Shown: positions 37,317 through 44,172 of the stretch, piece after piece
Position numbering within the stretch: the stretch's first letter is position 1
Layout of the letters: each line of letters begins with the position of its first letter
From: an uncultured delta proteobacterium
GTDB lineage: Bacteria > Myxococcota_A > Polyangia > Haliangiales > Haliangiaceae
Assembly (NCBI GenBank): GCA_963848295.1
Contig: CAWKDB010000010.1
Span: 768,001 to 832,000 of the forward strand
Direction of reading: 5' to 3'
Length of the DNA: 64,000 nucleotides
The notes under the pieces: model-generated
Databases searched by the model: none
What the model was told of the DNA's origin: nothing
What the model saw: the letters and a program-made list of their open reading frames with translations, nothing else
Made by a program: the position numbers and the translations under genes

Positions 37317-38372
37317 ATGATCTTTCGCCAGCTCTTCGATCAGGGTTCGAGCACGTACACGTACCTGCTCGCCGACGAGCAGACCCGCGACGCGGTGCTG
37401 ATCGATCCGGTGTTCGAACAGCACCTGCGCGACGCGGCGTTGCTGCGCGAGCTCGGGCTCGCCCTGCGCTACACGCTCGATACGCACTGCCATGCCGATC
37501 ATGTCACCGGTGCGTGGCTGATGAAGGCGGCGATGGGTAGCGAGATCGCGCTGTCGGCGGTGTACGCCGCCGAGCACGTCGACCGCCCGCTCGGCCACGG
37601 CGACACGATCCGCTTCGGCGACTGTTCGCTCGAGGTTCGCGCGACGCCGGGCCACACCGCCGGATGCCTGACGTTCGTCACCGCCGATCACACGACCGCG
37701 TTCACCGGCGATGCGCTGCTCGTGCGCGGTGCCGGCCGCACCGATTTCCAGCAGGGCGACGCCCGCACGTTGTTCCGCTCGATTCACGACCAGCTGTTCA
37801 CGCTCGATGACACTTGCGCGGTCTATCCAGGTCACGATTACGAAGGCCGCACCGCGACGACGATCGGCGAGGAGCGCCGCCACAATCCGCGGATCGGCGG
37901 CGGCGCGCGCGAAGAGGACTTCGTCGGCTACATGACGAACCTCGGCCTGCCTCATCCGAAGCAACTCGCGATCGCGTTGCCGGCGAACCTGCGCGCCGGA
38001 CAGCCCGAGGGCGGCGGCGGCCCGCTGGTCGCGAGCTGGGGCCCGGTGGTCGTGACGTACGCCGGGATGCGAGACATCGCGGCGGAGTGGGTCGCGACCC
38101 ATCGCGACGAGGTGCACGTCCTCGATGTCCGCAGCGGTCCGGAATTCTCCGGCGACCTCGGTCACGTCCATGGCTCGCAATTGATCCCGCTCGACGAGCT
38201 GCGCACGCGCCTCGCCGAGGTCCCGACTGATCGGCCGGTCGTCGTCGTGTGCCAGACCGGCGCGCGCTCGGCGATGGGCGCGACGATCCTCGCGAAGGCC
38301 GGAGTGGACCGCGTCGCGAGCCTCGCCGGCGGGATGATCCGGTGGCGCGAGCTCGGGCTGCCTCGCGAGTAG
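37317..38372 (+). CDS. Persulfide dioxygenase (ETHE1-like)-rhodanese fusion
   Basis: SSTYTYLL, DTHCHADHVTG, TPGHT.GC, GRTDFQ, PGHDY; C-terminal DVR..E...GH..GS and CQTGARS rhodanese loop. Confidence 0.92.
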   Translation: MIFRQLFDQGSSTYTYLLADEQTRDAVLIDPVFEQHLRDAALLRELGLALRYTLDTHCHADHVTGAWLMKAAMGSEIALSAVYAAEHVDRPLGHGDTIRFGDCSLEVRATPGHTAGCLTFVTADHTTAFTGDALLVRGAGRTDFQQGDARTLFRSIHDQLFTLDDTCAVYPGHDYEGRTATTIGEERRHNPRIGGGAREEDFVGYMTNLGLPHPKQLAIALPANLRAGQPEGGGGPLVASWGPVVVTYAGMRDIAAEWVATHRDEVHVLDVRSGPEFSGDLGHVHGSQLIPLDELRTRLAEVPTDRPVVVVCQTGARSAMGATILAKAGVDRVASLAGGMIRWRELGLPRE

Positions 38373-39356
38373 TCAGCGCAGTCGGATCAAGCGCGCGACG
38401 CCGAGCGTCGCCGATAGCTCGAGCCGCGAGTCCGAGTCGCCGAGGCGATGCTCGCCGGCCGCGAGGTCGAACGTGAACGCCCAGCGCGGGCTCATCGCGA
38501 ACCAGATCCCGGCGCGCCCCGTCGCGGTCCAGCCGGTCGCGTCCCACGGCGTGTAGCCCGCGAGCGCGGTCAGCTGCACTGCGGCGAGGCCACCCGCGAA
38601 CGGCTGTCGCAACACGACCGCGGCGTCGAGATCGAGCGGTGCCTGCCGCGGCTCGAAGCCGAGCCACGGTCCGACGAGGACGTGGTCGCCGAGCGGAAAC
38701 AACGCGCCGAGCGCCGCGATGCCGGTGCCGTGGCTCACGCCGCTTTCGCGGATCGCGCCGCCGCCGAGCTCGAGCCGGATCTGCGCGCGATCGACGGCCG
38801 CGAACCCGGGCGCTGCGGCGGCCTCGCCCGCGGTGCCGAGGGTGCGATCGAGGATCGCGAGCAGCTCGGGCGCGCCGACGCGATCATCTTTGACCGACGC
38901 GATCTTGCGATAGGCGATCCGACCGTCGCGGCCGATCACGGTGACACCGGGCAGCGCCGCCGAATCCGACGACATCCCGGCGTACGCTCGCGACACCGCG
39001 CCATCGGCGTCCGATAGCAGCGGAAACCAGATCCCGAGGTCGGCCGCGAACGCGCGCGAATCCTCGGGAGCGTCGAGGCTGATCGCGAGCAGCGTCACGC
39101 CGCGCGTGCGGAACGCCGCTTGGTTACGAGCCAGCTCGCCGAGCTGGTACTTGCACCACGGTCACCAATAGCCGCGATAGAACACGAGCGCGACCGGACC
39201 GTGCGCGAGCTCGTCGCCGAGCGTCACCGTGTGGCCATCCTGCGCCGGCAGGGCGAACGGCGGCGCGACCGAGCCGACCGTGACGGTCGCGGTCGACACG
39301 ACGTGCAAGGACGTCACACAACCGGAGGCGGCAAGAGCGTAAAGGGCGGTGCGCAC
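38373..39356 (-). CDS. Putative selenoprotein: lipoprotein signal + AhpC/TSA (peroxiredoxin-like) UxxC domain + beta-barrel-like C-terminal domain (327 aa, Sec at codon 65)
   Basis: Track ORFs 39162-39356 and 38373-39098 are in one frame, separated only by TGA at 39162-39164. Read-through gives VFYRGYW-U-PWCKYQLGEL...LLAISLD. Confidence 0.88.
39131..39147 (-). promoter_or_regulatory. Candidate bacterial SECIS hairpin
   Basis: CCAGCTC-GGC-GAGCTGG; stem starts 14 nt after the UGA; loop starts with G, 21 nt from the UGA. Confidence 0.7.
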
Positions 39357-39386
39357 GCGATCAGTGTCTCACGTGATCGACGCCGG

Positions 39387-41279
39387 CTAACGCGCGAGCG
39401 CGGTGCGGATCAGATCCTTCGGTACGGTCGTCGCCGGCGCGCCTTGCGGGAACCAGCTCGCGAGATCGGCGTCGAGCCCGAGGCCGTGCATGTAGTTGTA
39501 GAGCGCCTTGCGCAGGCCCTCGCCGAGCTGCTCGTGGTTCGTGCCGGTCGGGTCGTCGAACGCGAGGTCGTTGCGCGCGAACGTGATCGCGGGCTCGCGA
39601 TGCAAGCGGATGCCATAGAGCTCGGGCTGCTTGCCGATCGGGCTGTGCGCGGTCGCGGCGAAGCGATGCCAGAACGCCGATTGCACGCAGCCGGCTTCGA
39701 ACAGCTGGCGGACGCGTTCGAGCGAGTCGATCGTCTCCTGCGTGGTCTCGGTCGGAAAGCCGTACATCAAGTACGCGTGGACCATCACGCCGGCGTCGCT
39801 GAACGCGCGCGTGACCCGCGCGACCTGTTCGACCGTGACGCCCTTATCGATCAGGGCGAGCAGGCGATCCGAGGCGACCTCGAGGCCGCCGCTCACCGCG
39901 ACGCAGCCGGAGCGCGCGAGCAACGCCGCGAGCTCGGGCGTGAACGTCTTCTCGAACCGGATGTTGCCCCACCACGTGATCACGACGCCGCGCGCGATCA
40001 GCCGCTCGGCGAGCGAGCGCAACCCGGCGGGCGGCGCCGCTTCGTCGACGAAGTGAAACCCGGTCTGCCCGGTCTCCGCGACGATCGCCTCGATCCGATC
40101 GACGAGCAGGTCGGCGTGCACCGGATCGTAGCGCGCGATGTAATCGAGCGTGACGTCGCAGAACGTGCACTTCTTCCAGTAACAGCCGTGCGCGATCGTG
40201 AGCTTGTTCCACCGGCCGTCGGACCACAGCCGATGCATCGGGTTCAGCATCTCGAATAAGTTCAGGTAGCGGTCAAGCTGTAGCCCAGCGTAGGTCGGCG
40301 TTCCGGCGTCGCGCAGCGGCACGTCGTGAGCGGCGTCGTCGGTGCGTAGCTCGACGCGATCGCCGGCGCGCACGAACGTGCGAAACAACGGCTTGGCTGG
40401 ATCGCGCAGGTGATCGATCAACGCGAGCAGCGGCCGCTCCCCGTCGTCGAGCGTGATGTAGTCGACGTAGTCGAACACGCGCGGATCGGAGAGCTCGCGT
40501 AGCTCGGTGTTCACGAACCCGCCGCCGATCGCGATCCGGACGTGCGACGCCACCGCCTTGATCGCGCGCGCGATGCGGAACGCTCCGTAGACGTTGCCGG
40601 GAAACGGCACGGTCAGGCCGACGAGCTCCGGCTCGTGCTCGGCGTAGAGCTCGCGCGCGATCTCGTCGAGCGTTCCGTCGACGATCGTCGGCTCGCCTTC
40701 GAGCTCGTCGTGCAGCGCGTCGAACGTCGGCGCGCTCGCGGCCAGGTGCTCGCCGTAACGCGACAGCTCGAAGTGCGGCTGGATCCCTTCGCGCACGACG
40801 TCGGCGAGATCGTCGATGTACAGGCTCGCGAGGTGCTTCGCGCGGTCCGCGACGCCGAGCGCGCCGAACGCCCAGCCGAGCGGATCCGCGGCGCCGCGCG
40901 CGATCGCCGCGAACCGCGGGCCTTCGGGCAAGAACGCTCGCGTCGCGATCCGCATCGCGATCGCCGGGTCGCGCCCCTGCAAGAACGCGACGACCGCGTC
41001 GATCGTCTCGACGTAGCGCGCGGCATTCGGCAAGAAGCTCGCGATCGATTGCGGCGGCGCTTCGTCGACGTCGTCGGCGCGCTCCGCGAGCTCGGCCGCG
41101 ATCGCTTCGATCCCTTCGCGCGAGAACACGCGCAGGAACAGCTCGATCGCCGGATCGGCCTGGCGGACGTCGAGCCCGCGCGCCTCGGCGTGCTGGCGCA
41201 GGAACCCGGTCAAGTACGCCGTCGCGGGATACGGCGTGTTGAGCTGCGTCATCGGCGGCGTGAGGAGAAGGATGCGCAA
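39387..41279 (-). CDS. B12-binding domain radical SAM protein
   Basis: PPMTQLNTPYPATAYL, GCYWKKCTFC (CxxxCxxC), FHFVDEAAPP, HAYLMYGFP. Confidence 0.9.
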   Translation of the reverse strand: MRILLLTPPMTQLNTPYPATAYLTGFLRQHAEARGLDVRQADPAIELFLRVFSREGIEAIAAELAERADDVDEAPPQSIASFLPNAARYVETIDAVVAFLQGRDPAIAMRIATRAFLPEGPRFAAIARGAADPLGWAFGALGVADRAKHLASLYIDDLADVVREGIQPHFELSRYGEHLAASAPTFDALHDELEGEPTIVDGTLDEIARELYAEHEPELVGLTVPFPGNVYGAFRIARAIKAVASHVRIAIGGGFVNTELRELSDPRVFDYVDYITLDDGERPLLALIDHLRDPAKPLFRTFVRAGDRVELRTDDAAHDVPLRDAGTPTYAGLQLDRYLNLFEMLNPMHRLWSDGRWNKLTIAHGCYWKKCTFCDVTLDYIARYDPVHADLLVDRIEAIVAETGQTGFHFVDEAAPPAGLRSLAERLIARGVVITWWGNIRFEKTFTPELAALLARSGCVAVSGGLEVASDRLLALIDKGVTVEQVARVTRAFSDAGVMVHAYLMYGFPTETTQETIDSLERVRQLFEAGCVQSAFWHRFAATAHSPIGKQPELYGIRLHREPAITFARNDLAFDDPTGTNHEQLGEGLRKALYNYMHGLGLDADLASWFPQGAPATTVPKDLIRTALAR

Positions 41280-41319
41280 CGCGGGTCCATCGTAGCTGGC
41301 TGAGGTACGGTCGGCCACG

Positions 41320-42153
41320 ATGCGGCTCAACAAGTACCTCGGCGAGAGCGGCCGATGGTCGCGGCGCGAGGCCGACACCCTGATCGAACAAGGCCGGGTC
41401 ACGCTCAACGGTGCACCGGCCCCGCTCGGCGCTCAGGTCAACCCCGGTGACGAGGTCAAGGTCGACGGCGACCTCGTCGGCGGCGCGCGCAAGCTCGAGC
41501 GCCCGGTCTACATCGTGCTCAACAAACCGGTCGGCGTGACCTGCACGACCGAGCGTCACGTCGAAGGCAACATCATCGACTTCGTCGACCACCCCGAGCG
41601 GATCTTCCCGATCGGCCGGCTCGACAAGGACTCCGAAGGCCTGATCCTGCTGACGAACGACGGCGACATCGTCAACGAGGTCCTGCGGTCCGAGCACGAC
41701 CACGACAAGGAGTACGTCGTCGCGGTCGATCGCGGACTCGACGCAGACTTTGCCTCGAAGATGGCCAACGGCGTGCGGCTGTCGGAGGGCACGACGAAGC
41801 GCTGCAAGGTCGTGGTCCACGGCCCCAAGACGTTCACGATCGTGCTGACCCAAGGATGGAATCGTCAGATCCGCCGGATGTGCGAAGCGTTCGGCTATCA
41901 GGTCGTGGCGCTCGAGCGCGTGCGGTTCATGAACGTCGTGCTCGGCAACCTCGCGATCGGCCGATGGCGCAACCTCACGCCGCAAGAGCTCGCAGGGCTG
42001 AAATCCGCGGCGCCGCCTCGCAAGCCCGGAGCACAGCCTCCGAATCCCGGACACGCTCGTCCGAATCCCGGACACGCTCGTCCGAATCCCGGACACGCTC
42101 GTCCGAGTCCCGGCAGTCATCGCGGTCGCAGCGGGCGGCGCGGCGGGCGCTGA
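41320..42153 (+). CDS. rluF: 23S rRNA pseudouridine synthase (RluF/RsuA family) with S4 domain
   Basis: MRLNKYL...SRREAD, LNKPVGV, IGRLDKDSEGL, QGWNRQIRRM. Confidence 0.85.
   Translation: MRLNKYLGESGRWSRREADTLIEQGRVTLNGAPAPLGAQVNPGDEVKVDGDLVGGARKLERPVYIVLNKPVGVTCTTERHVEGNIIDFVDHPERIFPIGRLDKDSEGLILLTNDGDIVNEVLRSEHDHDKEYVVAVDRGLDADFASKMANGVRLSEGTTKRCKVVVHGPKTFTIVLTQGWNRQIRRMCEAFGYQVVALERVRFMNVVLGNLAIGRWRNLTPQELAGLKSAAPPRKPGAQPPNPGHARPNPGHARPNPGHARPSPGSHRGRSGRRGGR
42040..42113 (+). repeat. 21-bp coding tandem repeat (3 perfect copies + 1 partial; PNPGHAR)
   Basis: ccgaatcccggacacgctcgt at 42040, 42061 and 42082. Confidence 0.95.
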
Positions 42154-42372
42154 GTACGCGTTCGCGGCAAGCCTACACCGGCCGACACGACAGGCCGGCG
42201 GTTACGATCGGGGTAACCAGTTTCTGCGATTCTTTACCCCGCTTCGGATAGCGATCGGGTGTTCTCGACGAGGAATCGCGGATGGTCATCGACGTTCATC
42301 GTTCGCGATGTGCGACGTGCGCCGCTCGTGGCGCACCTAGCTTCGCCGTCCCAGATCAGTACATTGGATCCA

Positions 42373-44172
42373 GTGAAGCTTCACGCTGTAATCGTTGTCG
42401 CTGCGTCGTGCATCCTCGGCTGTGGCAGTCACCAAGCCGACAATTCTTCTCCGGATGCCGGCATCGTGCTCGACGACGCCGCGGTCGATGCGCCCGGTGG
42501 CCCGACGTGCGGCAACGGCAAGCTCGATCCGGGCGAGACCTGCGACGACGGCAACACCACGTCGGGCGACGGCTGCTCGTCCAATTGCTCGATCGAGACC
42601 GGCTTCGCATGCGGTGAGCCCGGCACGTTGTGCTTGTCGACCCACACCTGCGGCAACGGCATCGTCGAGGATCTCGAGGGCTGCGACGATCACAACACGA
42701 CGAGCGGTGACGGCTGCAGCTCGAGCTGCCAGCTCGAAGCCGGTTGGACGTGTCCGGTCCCCGGCATTCGGTGCTCGGCCGCGAGCTGCGGCGATGGCAT
42801 CGTCGCCGGGTTCGAAGAGTGCGACTTGGGCGCGGCCAACGGCACGGGCGCCGGCTGCACCGCCGACTGCAAGATCCAACAAGGCTGGGACTGCCCGCCG
42901 ATGACGACGTGCTCGCAGACCACGTGCGGCGACGGGGTGGTGCAGGGCTTCCCGTACGGCACCGAAGAGTGCGACGACGGCAACGACGACCTCGGCGACG
43001 GCTGCGACCCGCTGTGTCAGCGCGAGCCGATCTGCGCGACCGACGGCACGTGCACCGCGGTGTGCGGCGACGGCGTGCTGCAAGCCGGCGAGCTGTGCGA
43101 CGACGGCAACCTCGAAAACTTCGACGGCTGCTCGAGCACGTGCATGCCGGAGACCGGCTTCACGTGCACGCCGGTCACCGATGGCGAGCCGGCGACGTTG
43201 GCGGTCACGATCGTCTACCGCGACTTCATCGGCGACGACATCGCAGGTGGCTTTGTCGACTTCGAGAACAAGAACGGCGCGGAGAGCGGCCTGCTCGGCC
43301 CGCTGTACACGTCGACGCTGGATAGCGATGGCAAGCCGGTCCTGACGAAGGCGAACCCGAGCACGGTGAGCAGCTCCGCGACGTTCGCCGAATGGTATCG
43401 CGACGAGCCGGGCACGAACCTCACGATCCCGTCGACCCTCACGCTGACCGATCAGGGCTCGAACACGTACCTGTTCGATAGCCAGGCGTTCTTCCCGCTC
43501 GACAACCTCGGCTGGGTCGCGCTCGGCGACGAGCCCGCGCGCGACGGCGGCCACAACTTCAGCTTCACCTCGGAGCTCGCGTACTGGTTCACCTGGAGCG
43601 GCACGGCGAACGAGAAGCTGACGTTCCGCGGCGACGACGACGTCTTCGTGTTCATCAACGGCCGGCTCGCCGTCGACCTCGGCGGCGTGCACAGCGCGGA
43701 GACCGGCTCGGTCACGCTCGACGCCGCGACCGGCGCGAAGCTCGGGATGGTCGCGGGCGGCACCTACCAGGTCGATGTGTTCCAGGCCGAGCGCCACACG
43801 AGCGGGTCGTCGTATCAGCTCACGCTGGAGGGCTTCAACGCGCCACATAGCCAGTGCGTGTCGACGTGCGGCGATGGCATCACCTCGTCGCAAGAGGCGT
43901 GCGACGACGGCACGAACGACGGTAGCTACGGCTCGTGCACGCCGGATTGCCTCGGCTTCGGCCCGCGTTGCGGCGACGGCATCGTGCAGCCCGATCACGA
44001 ACAATGCGACGACGGCACGAACACCGGCGGTTACAACCACTGCAATCCGAACTGCACGCTCGGCCCGCGCTGTGGCGACGGCATCGTCCAGACCGCCGAT
44101 GGCGAGGCCTGCGACGACGGCAACGACGATCCGAACGACGGCTGCGACAACTGCCAGGTCGTGATCCAGTAG
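42373..44172 (+). CDS. Lipoprotein with Myxococcus Cys-rich repeats (DUF4215-like) and fibro-slime/PA14-like domain
   Basis: ILGC lipobox; many CGNG...E.CDDGN...GDGC repeats; HNFSFTSE, F.GDDDVFVFING.L.VDLGGVH, QAERH. Confidence 0.92.
   Translation: MKLHAVIVVAASCILGCGSHQADNSSPDAGIVLDDAAVDAPGGPTCGNGKLDPGETCDDGNTTSGDGCSSNCSIETGFACGEPGTLCLSTHTCGNGIVEDLEGCDDHNTTSGDGCSSSCQLEAGWTCPVPGIRCSAASCGDGIVAGFEECDLGAANGTGAGCTADCKIQQGWDCPPMTTCSQTTCGDGVVQGFPYGTEECDDGNDDLGDGCDPLCQREPICATDGTCTAVCGDGVLQAGELCDDGNLENFDGCSSTCMPETGFTCTPVTDGEPATLAVTIVYRDFIGDDIAGGFVDFENKNGAESGLLGPLYTSTLDSDGKPVLTKANPSTVSSSATFAEWYRDEPGTNLTIPSTLTLTDQGSNTYLFDSQAFFPLDNLGWVALGDEPARDGGHNFSFTSELAYWFTWSGTANEKLTFRGDDDVFVFINGRLAVDLGGVHSAETGSVTLDAATGAKLGMVAGGTYQVDVFQAERHTSGSSYQLTLEGFNAPHSQCVSTCGDGITSSQEACDDGTNDGSYGSCTPDCLGFGPRCGDGIVQPDHEQCDDGTNTGGYNHCNPNCTLGPRCGDGIVQTADGEACDDGNDDPNDGCDNCQVVIQ

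Follow-up and report, generated by a model that had tools for sequence, protein, structure and literature searches.

A predicted redoxin-barrel selenoprotein gene

The gene described here lies on the minus strand of a 64,000-nucleotide (nt) stretch of DNA, hereafter the window, from an uncultured delta proteobacterium of the family Haliangiaceae (GenBank assembly GCA_963848295.1, contig CAWKDB010000010.1, positions 768,001 to 832,000 of the forward strand; coordinates below count from the first letter of the window). Read with selenocysteine (Sec, U) at an in-frame TGA, it encodes a 327-amino-acid (aa) protein that joins a lipoprotein-type signal, a peroxiredoxin-like (Prx-like) thioredoxin-fold domain and a C-terminal beta-barrel, with the following features:

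38373..39356, minus strand: complete gene for 327 aa, starting with GTG; codon 65 is Sec and the stop is TGA (38373-38375)
39363..39371, minus strand: -10-like element of the extended kind (TG, -15/-14; A, -11; T, -7), its A-11 and T-7 shared by 24/54 homologue upstream regions
39318..39356, minus strand: lipoprotein-type signal (residues 1-12) and putative lipidated, conserved Cys13, A-S-G-C
39279..39317, minus strand: tether between lipid anchor and redoxin, residues 14-26, with V-T-x-L-H-V conserved in a 51-sequence alignment
38844..39278, minus strand: AhpC/TSA (Prx-like) thioredoxin-fold redoxin, residues ~27-171, active site F-Y-R-G-Y-W-U-P-W-C
39162..39164, minus strand: in-frame TGA read as Sec (U65), TGA in 68/68 loci that span the codon
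39131..39147, minus strand: bacterial selenocysteine insertion sequence (SECIS) hairpin, 7-bp stem, 3-nt loop starting GG, loop 21 nt past the UGA
38787..38843, minus strand: linker (residues 172-190) whose length hardly varies, closing with a short helix ahead of strand 1
38385..38786, minus strand: predicted 8-stranded OmpA/NspA-type beta-barrel, residues 191-324 (structure models, fold searches, strand composition)
38376..38426, minus strand: final strand, its beta-signal degenerate (T-L-G-V-A-R-L-I), followed by a tail of 3 residues (alignment)

An earlier note on this DNA, made from the letters alone, had recognized the protein from short translated strings, all of which fall in one minus-strand frame once the TGA is taken as Sec: the N-terminus MRTALYALAASG-C forms residues 1-13, and the proposed barrel strands map to 192-200 (QIRLELGGG), 226-234 (VLVGPWLGF), 260-268 (VQLTALAGY), 280-288 (GRAGIWFAM), 292-301 (WAFTFDLAAG) and 312-321 (LELSATLGVA). 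The interval given there, 38373-38830, does hold linker, barrel and stop codon; the gene itself extends to 39356. Third-position GC content is 0.85-0.91 on either side of the internal TGA. The annotated downstream open reading frame (ORF) is 241 aa long and is without the signal and the active-site strand, and database entries of the selenoprotein family (76 strong matches) are 185-261 aa long and span no more than 76% of the query. The family is hidden among truncated hypothetical proteins because its Sec codon has been taken for a stop.

Selenocysteine decoding at codon 65

On sequence evidence the codon-65 TGA is a selenocysteine codon, because it is TGA in 68/68 loci, is followed by a conserved SECIS, sits in a genome with the full Sec machinery and is matched by full-length forms with cysteine. 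Among 70 homologous loci, the 68 that span codon 65 include duplicates and correspond to 60 distinct sequences. The Sec position is cysteine in the full-length homologues P0140, P0155 and P0158 and in a barrel-less relative (L107), and serine in the full-length homologue P0142. The SECIS hairpin, which starts 15 and ends 31 nt past the TGA and has the loop GGC (-16.3 kcal/mol over 44 nt), fits every constraint of the bacterial SECIS model as set out in the accessible text of PMC13188914 (loop of 3-9 nt, stem of 4-16 bp, G in loop positions 1-2, 16-37 nt from the UGA, minimum free energy of -7.5 or lower).

Stem pairing is kept in 98.7% of 448 cells in 64 distinct SECIS sequences, and four of the 64, which are related and not independent, show a compensatory G-C to A-U change. 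Furthermore, synonymous sites in the SECIS are fixed far beyond codon usage: the two stem leucine codons are CTC in 60/60 and CTG in 59/60 sequences, compared to 58% and 32% elsewhere in the same genes, and the loop glycine codon is GGT in 31/60, compared to 13%. The genome encodes tRNA-Sec, SelA, SelB and SelD, the three proteins scoring over their family cut-offs. A crude genome-wide selenoprotein scan returned 26 candidates, among which the redoxin-barrel gene is the only plausible one.

The redoxin domain and enzyme type

The Pfam family PF00578 (AhpC-TSA) matches residues 27-149 (E 2.6e-28; 98.9 bits against a cut-off of 26), and together with the active-site motif U65-P-W-C68 this gives the combination of PF00578 and UxxC by which Prx-like thiol:disulfide oxidoreductases are recognized. 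Fold matches to the domain include AhpE/Bcp (Z 20-21), PGFS/PRXL2B (Z 17.2) and ResA (Z 17.1). A canonical peroxiredoxin (AhpC, Bcp/PrxQ or AhpE) was considered and rejected, the P-x-x-x-T/S-x-x-C motif and catalytic Arg not being matched; relative to ApPrxQ, R61 stands in place of the motif Pro and U65 in place of the Ser, and the region of the catalytic Arg carries L-P-G (P136), as in ResA.

The domain falls below every NCBIfam cut-off (ResA, 46.5 against 170), with the best match to the SelL-related family NF040769 (E 6e-14; 52 bits against a cut-off of 120) and scores of 33-53 bits to that family for the full-length Cys and Ser forms. It resembles ResA/TlpA or PRXL2-type enzymes. Human PGFS/PRXL2B is described in the accessible text of PMC12938796 as a CxxC endoperoxide reductase with Arg40/Arg41 immediately ahead of the CxxC; judged by spacing, the invariant R61, at -4 from the UxxC, would occupy the same offset as the PRXL2B Arg. 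As a separate observation, the Ser form P0142 is a one-cysteine (S-P-W-C) fused form that keeps the barrel; it is a single record and could be a sequencing variant.

N-terminal signal and translation start

The earlier note had proposed a short lipoprotein-type signal, and such a signal recurs with a conserved Cys across the family. The Cys stands 40-64 residues ahead of the Sec in 65/68 loci, the remaining three being truncated at contig starts, and the residue at -1 is Gly or Ala in 51/51 aligned rows; the 51-row alignment was built from full-length genes with such a Cys, so that Cys conservation in it arises partly by selection. A basic n-region, an uncharged h-region, G/A at -1 and the conserved Cys, all features of a lipoprotein, are present, with a signal length of 11-13 residues in 41/51 rows. 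The window protein gave no Pfam lipoprotein-signal match at E <= 1. Signals are longer in other genera and in the Cys forms, and several distant forms have L/V at -3. The +2 residue is never D or K (56/56) and +7 is Ala in 1/56; under the rules for E. coli and M. xanthus given in the accessible text of PMC3222651, this points to the outer membrane; according to the same source, myxobacteria secrete lipoproteins and a +7 Ala is the M. xanthus export signal.

A crude genome-wide pattern, which requires R/K at position 2 and is biased towards short matches, found 238 lipoprotein-like signals in the own genome, with a modal length of 12 residues and 132 of them at most 13 residues long. The shortness of the signal, about which the earlier note was cautious, is thereby less of a concern; its -3 residue stays non-canonical. 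The short signal is probably real, judging from these sequence comparisons. In the full-length structure model, tether residues 14-26 have a low predicted local distance difference test (pLDDT) score, the alignment having no depth there.

Upstream of the GTG, A at -11 and T at -7 occur jointly in 24/54 distinct homologue upstream regions (0-6 at 12 other offsets), and words resembling a Shine-Dalgarno sequence occur in 4/54; the placement of this -10-like element and the scarcity of such words support the start-codon call. We infer from this pattern a leaderless mRNA that would begin at the GTG. A consensus scan of the gene found no sigma-70 consensus promoter and no intrinsic terminator. With the same crude signal pattern as above, a -10-like box is placed for leaderless translation in 50/238 lipoprotein-like genes of the genome.

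The C-terminal beta-barrel

AlphaFold2 models the C-terminal domain with eight strands in both full-length and barrel-only form, the latter (51 sequences) reaching a mean pLDDT of 94.1 and a predicted TM-score (pTM) of 0.86. In a structural search of the barrel model against 48,161 solved chains, the top 11 matches were all transmembrane 8-stranded barrels, led by Legionella porin III (9nh2; Z 18.7, root-mean-square deviation (rmsd) 2.2, 141 aligned residues) and including NspA (Z 16.9, rmsd 2.3, 134 aligned), a designed transmembrane barrel (Z 16.4), OprF (Z 16.0, 2.2, 124), OmpA (Z 15.6, 2.0, 121), OmpW (Z 15.3) and PagL (Z 15.2), with the soluble barrels of surface lipoproteins lower (NHBA, Z 10.0; HpuA, 9.0; fHbp, 8.9; 3hoe, 8.1). 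Foldseek agreed, 12/13 matches at E <= 0.001 being outer-membrane-type barrels and the other a lyase. These models and fold ranks support the proposal in the earlier note that the last ~140 aa form an 8-stranded barrel.

One face of the strands is 63% L/I/V/F/M/W/Y and 2% charged; on the other, Gly and charged residues make up 21% each and polar residues 24.5%. Turns T1-T3 have fixed lengths in 51/51 sequences, and loops L1-L4 differ in length, with a pair identity of 19-38%. The invariant barrel residues R190, Q192, P221, R250, P252 and P290 cluster on the turn side, and conserved charged or polar residues on the presumed lumen side comprise R194, D/E196, D244, R250, E261, R281, Q295 and D297. 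The linker into strand 1 is 16-19 residues long in 51/51 sequences (~18 in the window protein) and contains a helix in both models. Mean identity is lower in the barrel than in the redoxin (41% vs 62%). A predicted complex between the redoxin and the barrel of the Cys form P0140 scored 0.01, which is evidence neither for nor against contact.

The beta-signal consensus is given as Hy-G-Hy-G-Y-(+)-F in the accessible text of 10.1101/2022.04.13.488089; the corresponding region of the window protein is L-G-V-A-R-L-I followed by the tail. The end position is Phe in 15/51 sequences, and distant forms terminate in GGVGFLF, GVAWRF or GTTWAF. The terminal aromatic missing from the window protein, which had made the earlier barrel call tentative, weakens as a caveat, as distant forms end in Phe. 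The Pfam barrel family PF13505 (OMP_b-brl) was found in 3/9 distant homologues, at E 0.0075-0.075 and under its cut-off. Pfam offers no credible family for the last 140 residues of the window protein, and barrel sequence matches in Pfam, NCBIfam and PDB (SPW, MipA, TRPM4) were set aside as chance. A PagL-like enzyme barrel was also rejected, the conserved Ser that the PagL dyad needs being absent after His303.

Distribution and origin of the fusion

The architecture was sought in relatives of the source organism, among samples of partly incomplete genomes, with a match counted as barrel-spanning where its query end lay at or past residue 290. At order level 53/147 genomes match at E <= 1e-25, and in 48 of the 147 (own genome included) a single match runs from the redoxin into the barrel with the internal TGA, one of them also carrying a TAG. 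In a class-wide sample, 26/67 genomes of the own family match; among the other 333 genomes of that sample none gave a barrel-spanning match and one gave the redoxin alone. A phylum-level search with the barrel profile found 1/400 other genomes, from the same genus; the corresponding search with the full-length profile was insensitive, with five candidates scored per genome.

Against 1.84 billion representative proteins, the barrel profile gave 65 matches. A redoxin lies upstream in 53 and seven are too short to judge; the five without a redoxin score are two repeat proteins and three partial or garbled records. Four of the 65, three with Cys and one with Ser, are full length, and one full-length Cys form is labelled Myxococcales bacterium. 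A search for further Cys forms from P0140 returned only itself and P0142, and no standalone barrel paralogue was found in the own genome.

In a redoxin tree of 47 sequences (25 from the close set, 11 further fused loci, four full-length proteins and seven barrel-less relatives), the 40 fused redoxins fall on one side of a branch from the seven barrel-less ones with support of 99/95, the tree being midpoint-rooted only. These seven (L101, L104-L109) are Prx-like proteins of UxxC or CxxC type, lipoprotein-like and exported, that share the QLGEL-type helix; 6/7 have the TGA, mostly with a similar hairpin. The topology fits a single fusion event onto an already exported Prx-like lipoprotein. A frame break or extra stop, from assembly error or decay, was seen in the copies L099/L113 (G126), L100 (G112) and G066:C141:18233-19192.

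Comparison with known systems

The catalytic domain is of a kind already listed: the Prx-like selenoproteins (PF00578, UxxC/UxxU; Table 1 of PMC13188914) and Redoxin UxxC selenoproteins (PF08534) share the UxxC and the UGA with SECIS, the former also PF00578 over its cut-off, and the barrel-less exported relatives belong in the same class. The window protein differs from the listed Prx-like selenoproteins in its predicted C-terminal 8-stranded outer-membrane barrel, and none of the 119 selenoprotein families of that 2026 table is a redoxin-barrel fusion. Two entries, the GSU2204 family (MtrB/PioB barrel) and an FCYXU-type TonB-dependent receptor, likewise place Sec in an outer-membrane barrel protein; they are large-barrel types with no thioredoxin-fold domain in the table, whereas here Sec sits in a separate redoxin beside a minimal barrel. 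The accessible text of PMC9312934 describes one outer-membrane selenoprotein and no redoxin-barrel fusion.

Further likenesses are partial. With ResA/TlpA/DsbE the protein shares a W-C-x-x-C-type site, a Pro at the cis-Pro position and a putative membrane-tethered, extracytoplasmic setting; it differs in having Sec for the first Cys, a predicted outer- instead of an inner-membrane anchor and a locus outside cytochrome c maturation genes. PRXL2B and NF040769 offer a Prx-like fold, a CxxC and an Arg four residues ahead, in families without a barrel. The OmpA/OprF N-terminal domain, NspA, OmpW and PagL resemble the barrel in fold (Z 15-17, 121-138 aligned), amphipathic strands, short turns of fixed length and variable loops, at 9-15% identity; here, unlike in those proteins, the barrel is C-terminal to a putatively lipidated enzyme domain and has a degenerate beta-signal. 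The DsbD-DUF3570-thioredoxin-DUF4266-ApbE clusters described in the accessible text of PMC8238504 couple DsbD and thioredoxin-like proteins in envelope electron transfer, and the own genome has parts of this kind elsewhere, but they are multi-gene and flavin-based, unlike the stand-alone redoxin-barrel gene; no DUF3570 match was found in the protein or its scanned window neighbours, and no ApbE or DUF4266 neighbour recurs.

The earlier note knew of no described redoxin(Sec)-barrel fusion, and this still holds for the open literature searched (subscription papers lay largely outside it) and for the 119-family list. A thioredoxin-barrel fusion was found neither in the accessible text of PMC12419801 nor in a literature search on DUF3187. 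The redoxin-barrel architecture is real, conserved and apparently undescribed. As leads only, the ESM Atlas contains a cluster of Thioredoxin_2 (97%) with OMP_b-brl_2 (78%) (423 aa, 300 members, Bacteroidota, score 0.81) and one of DUF3187 with thioredoxin (505 aa, 95 members, Acidobacteriota, score 0.76), which are possible independent thioredoxin-barrel fusions. The pairing of thioredoxin fold and barrel is not unique in idea, the other cases being unverified leads.

Proposed mechanism and alternatives

Sequence, Sec signal, folds and conservation are all supported by computation, and together they favour the proposal of the earlier note that this is an envelope selenium redox enzyme tethered to its own barrel; none of the outcomes named there as speaking against it (a soluble C-terminal fold, no signal, homologues never carrying the fusion) was encountered. 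On balance, we consider it probable that the protein is an outer-membrane, doubly anchored selenol/thiol oxidoreductase with the barrel as anchor and recharge of the DsbD type. The precursor would be exported via its short signal and lipidated at Cys13, and the predicted barrel would insert in the outer membrane. The redoxin is predicted to lead into strand 1 of the barrel, at the end where the short, conserved turns lie. That end would be periplasmic, as it is in barrels of the OmpA type, whose two termini and short turns point into the periplasm. Lipid tether and linker may together hold U-P-W-C near the inner face of the outer membrane. The barrel is most likely a closed anchor and scaffold; a receptor fits less well, conservation being concentrated at the turns while the outer loops diverge. 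The most likely substrates of the Sec/Cys pair are oxidised thiols on outer-membrane proteins and lipoproteins or, alternatively, membrane-side peroxides, reduced in a PRXL2-type manner. Recharge could come from DsbD beta-gamma proteins via a periplasmic thioredoxin; in Caulobacter, periplasmic Prx and Prx-like proteins are maintained in the reduced state by a carrier of the DsbD class (accessible text of PMC3322552). In evolution, the barrel would have been added once to an exported Prx-like lipoprotein.

The own genome has two DsbD beta-gamma genes (DsbD_TM plus thioredoxin, without the alpha domain) and four DUF3570 genes, one of them ~2 kb upstream of a DsbD gene:

C10:429409-430371, C10:432543-433178 and C11:626650-627288, own genome: DsbD beta-gamma / DUF3570 loci

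Several observations count against parts of this model. The SECIS taken alone only modestly beats shuffled sequences (z -1.71; 8/200 equally good). The lipobox is non-canonical at -3, a position that is usually Leu (or V/I) according to the accessible text of PMC3222651, being Ala in the window protein and mostly S/G/A in close homologues, and a strict lipobox is found in 10/56 sequences and a relaxed one in 20/56. In the barrel, PF13505 is matched at E <= 0.1 in 0/51 close members, a PDB sequence search gave no match, the Tyr position of the beta-signal is Arg in 40/51 sequences (Y/W/F in 7/51, which fixes the register), and the lipid-facing side of the strands was assigned from composition and fold rank, not from model coordinates. 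In roughly two thirds of the genomes of the order, many of them incomplete, the gene was not detected, and it would be dispensable or patchy. No conserved neighbour ties the gene to a donor or substrate, any one neighbour being shared by at most four loci; the "envelope redox system" of the earlier note, if meant as a multi-gene unit, therefore gives way to a single stand-alone gene. A peroxide role is not assured, because peroxidase activity could not be detected for PrxL, the Prx-like protein of Caulobacter (accessible text of PMC3322552). The weak point of the anchor reading is the added value of the barrel, barrel-less relatives being already lipid-anchored.

Three alternatives concern what the product is. 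If the TGA were a true stop or a pseudogene lesion, with the 241-aa downstream ORF as product, the near-exclusive presence of the family in databases as 185-261 aa pieces (76 matches) would follow; TGA at the identical codon in 68/68 loci and the conserved SECIS rule this out, and with the full Sec machinery, the full-length Cys forms and a short ORF devoid of signal and active-site strand the chance left to it is vanishingly small. The C-terminal domain could instead be a soluble 8-stranded barrel, since a lipoprotein with such a C-terminal barrel is the hallmark of the Slam-type surface lipoproteins TbpB, fHbp and NHBA, and NHBA, HpuA, fHbp and 3hoe do appear in the fold search (Z 8-10); they rank 5-10 Z units under the transmembrane barrels, however, the second strand face is Gly-rich and distant forms have a terminal-Phe beta-signal and weak PF13505 matches, which makes a soluble barrel very improbable. 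Gene and barrel might also be real with Cys13 unlipidated, an ordinary signal being cleaved or uncleaved and the barrel serving as sole anchor. The S, G or A at -3 in most close homologues, a Cys at position 13 where classical lipoprotein patterns expect it later, and the absence of a Pfam signal match at E <= 1 would agree with that; we regard it as improbable given the Cys in 65/65 loci with an intact N-terminus, Gly/Ala at -1 in 51/51, the long signals with L/V at -3 in distant forms and, by the crude pattern, the 132/238 lipoprotein-like signals of at most 13 residues.

Two others concern what the barrel does. It may be a working conduit, through whose polar lumen a small oxidant, thiol or metalloid oxyanion reaches the Sec site below or reducing power is relayed outward; with the minimal barrel coupled to the Sec site, a periplasmic selenoenzyme would have access to targets within the outer membrane or outside it. 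The conserved charges of the lumen-side face, the nearly fixed linker length and the almost exclusive association of barrel and redoxin (53/65 matches, most others fragments) are in keeping with this, as is the consideration that a lipid anchor suffices for tethering in the barrel-less relatives and the barrel must contribute more. Set against these are the short, poorly conserved outer loops, the interrupted lumens of OmpA/NspA-size barrels, a polar lumen unlike the hydrophobic channels of OmpW/AlkL, and a barrel that diverges faster than the redoxin; we hold a conduit to be unlikely; were it one, the protein would be the smallest member of a repeatedly invented thioredoxin-barrel class, bringing heme-free thiol/selenol reducing power to the outer membrane. 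Somewhat more doubtful is display of the redoxin on the cell surface, where it would reduce extracellular disulfides or prey-derived oxidants. N-terminal lipid, passenger and C-terminal barrel are the layout of the lipoprotein autotransporter NalP, and lipoprotein secretion by myxobacteria, as noted above, would suit it; yet the helix threaded through the 12-stranded barrels of autotransporters does not fit into the narrower lumen of eight strands, the linker helix lies ahead of strand 1 on the turn side, the +7 Ala export signal occurs in 1/56 and no electron donor is obvious for a site on the surface.

If the anchored-oxidoreductase model is right, one 327-aa protein would put a selenium active site at the outer membrane, whose redox upkeep is little understood, the known envelope reductases being either soluble or anchored at the inner membrane. 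Built-in controls exist in the naturally occurring Sec, Cys and Ser versions and in the barrel-less relatives, and the joint need for the lipoprotein and barrel-assembly sorting routes with a 12-residue signal would make the protein a compact test case for outer-membrane biogenesis.

Neighbouring genes in the window

On the plus strand, 37317-38372 encodes a fusion of a metallo-beta-lactamase fold with rhodanese, which we take to be persulfide-dioxygenase-like; its stop abuts that of the selenoprotein gene with zero gap, and it is not a conserved neighbour. On the other side lie a B12-binding radical S-adenosylmethionine gene (39387-41408, minus strand) and, divergently, an S4-domain RNA pseudouridine synthase gene (41320-42153, plus strand). 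Further along, 42259-44172 (plus strand) encodes a 637-aa cysteine-rich repeat protein, presumably similar to the Cys-rich-repeat proteins of myxobacteria and an example of the disulfide-rich exported proteins of this genome.

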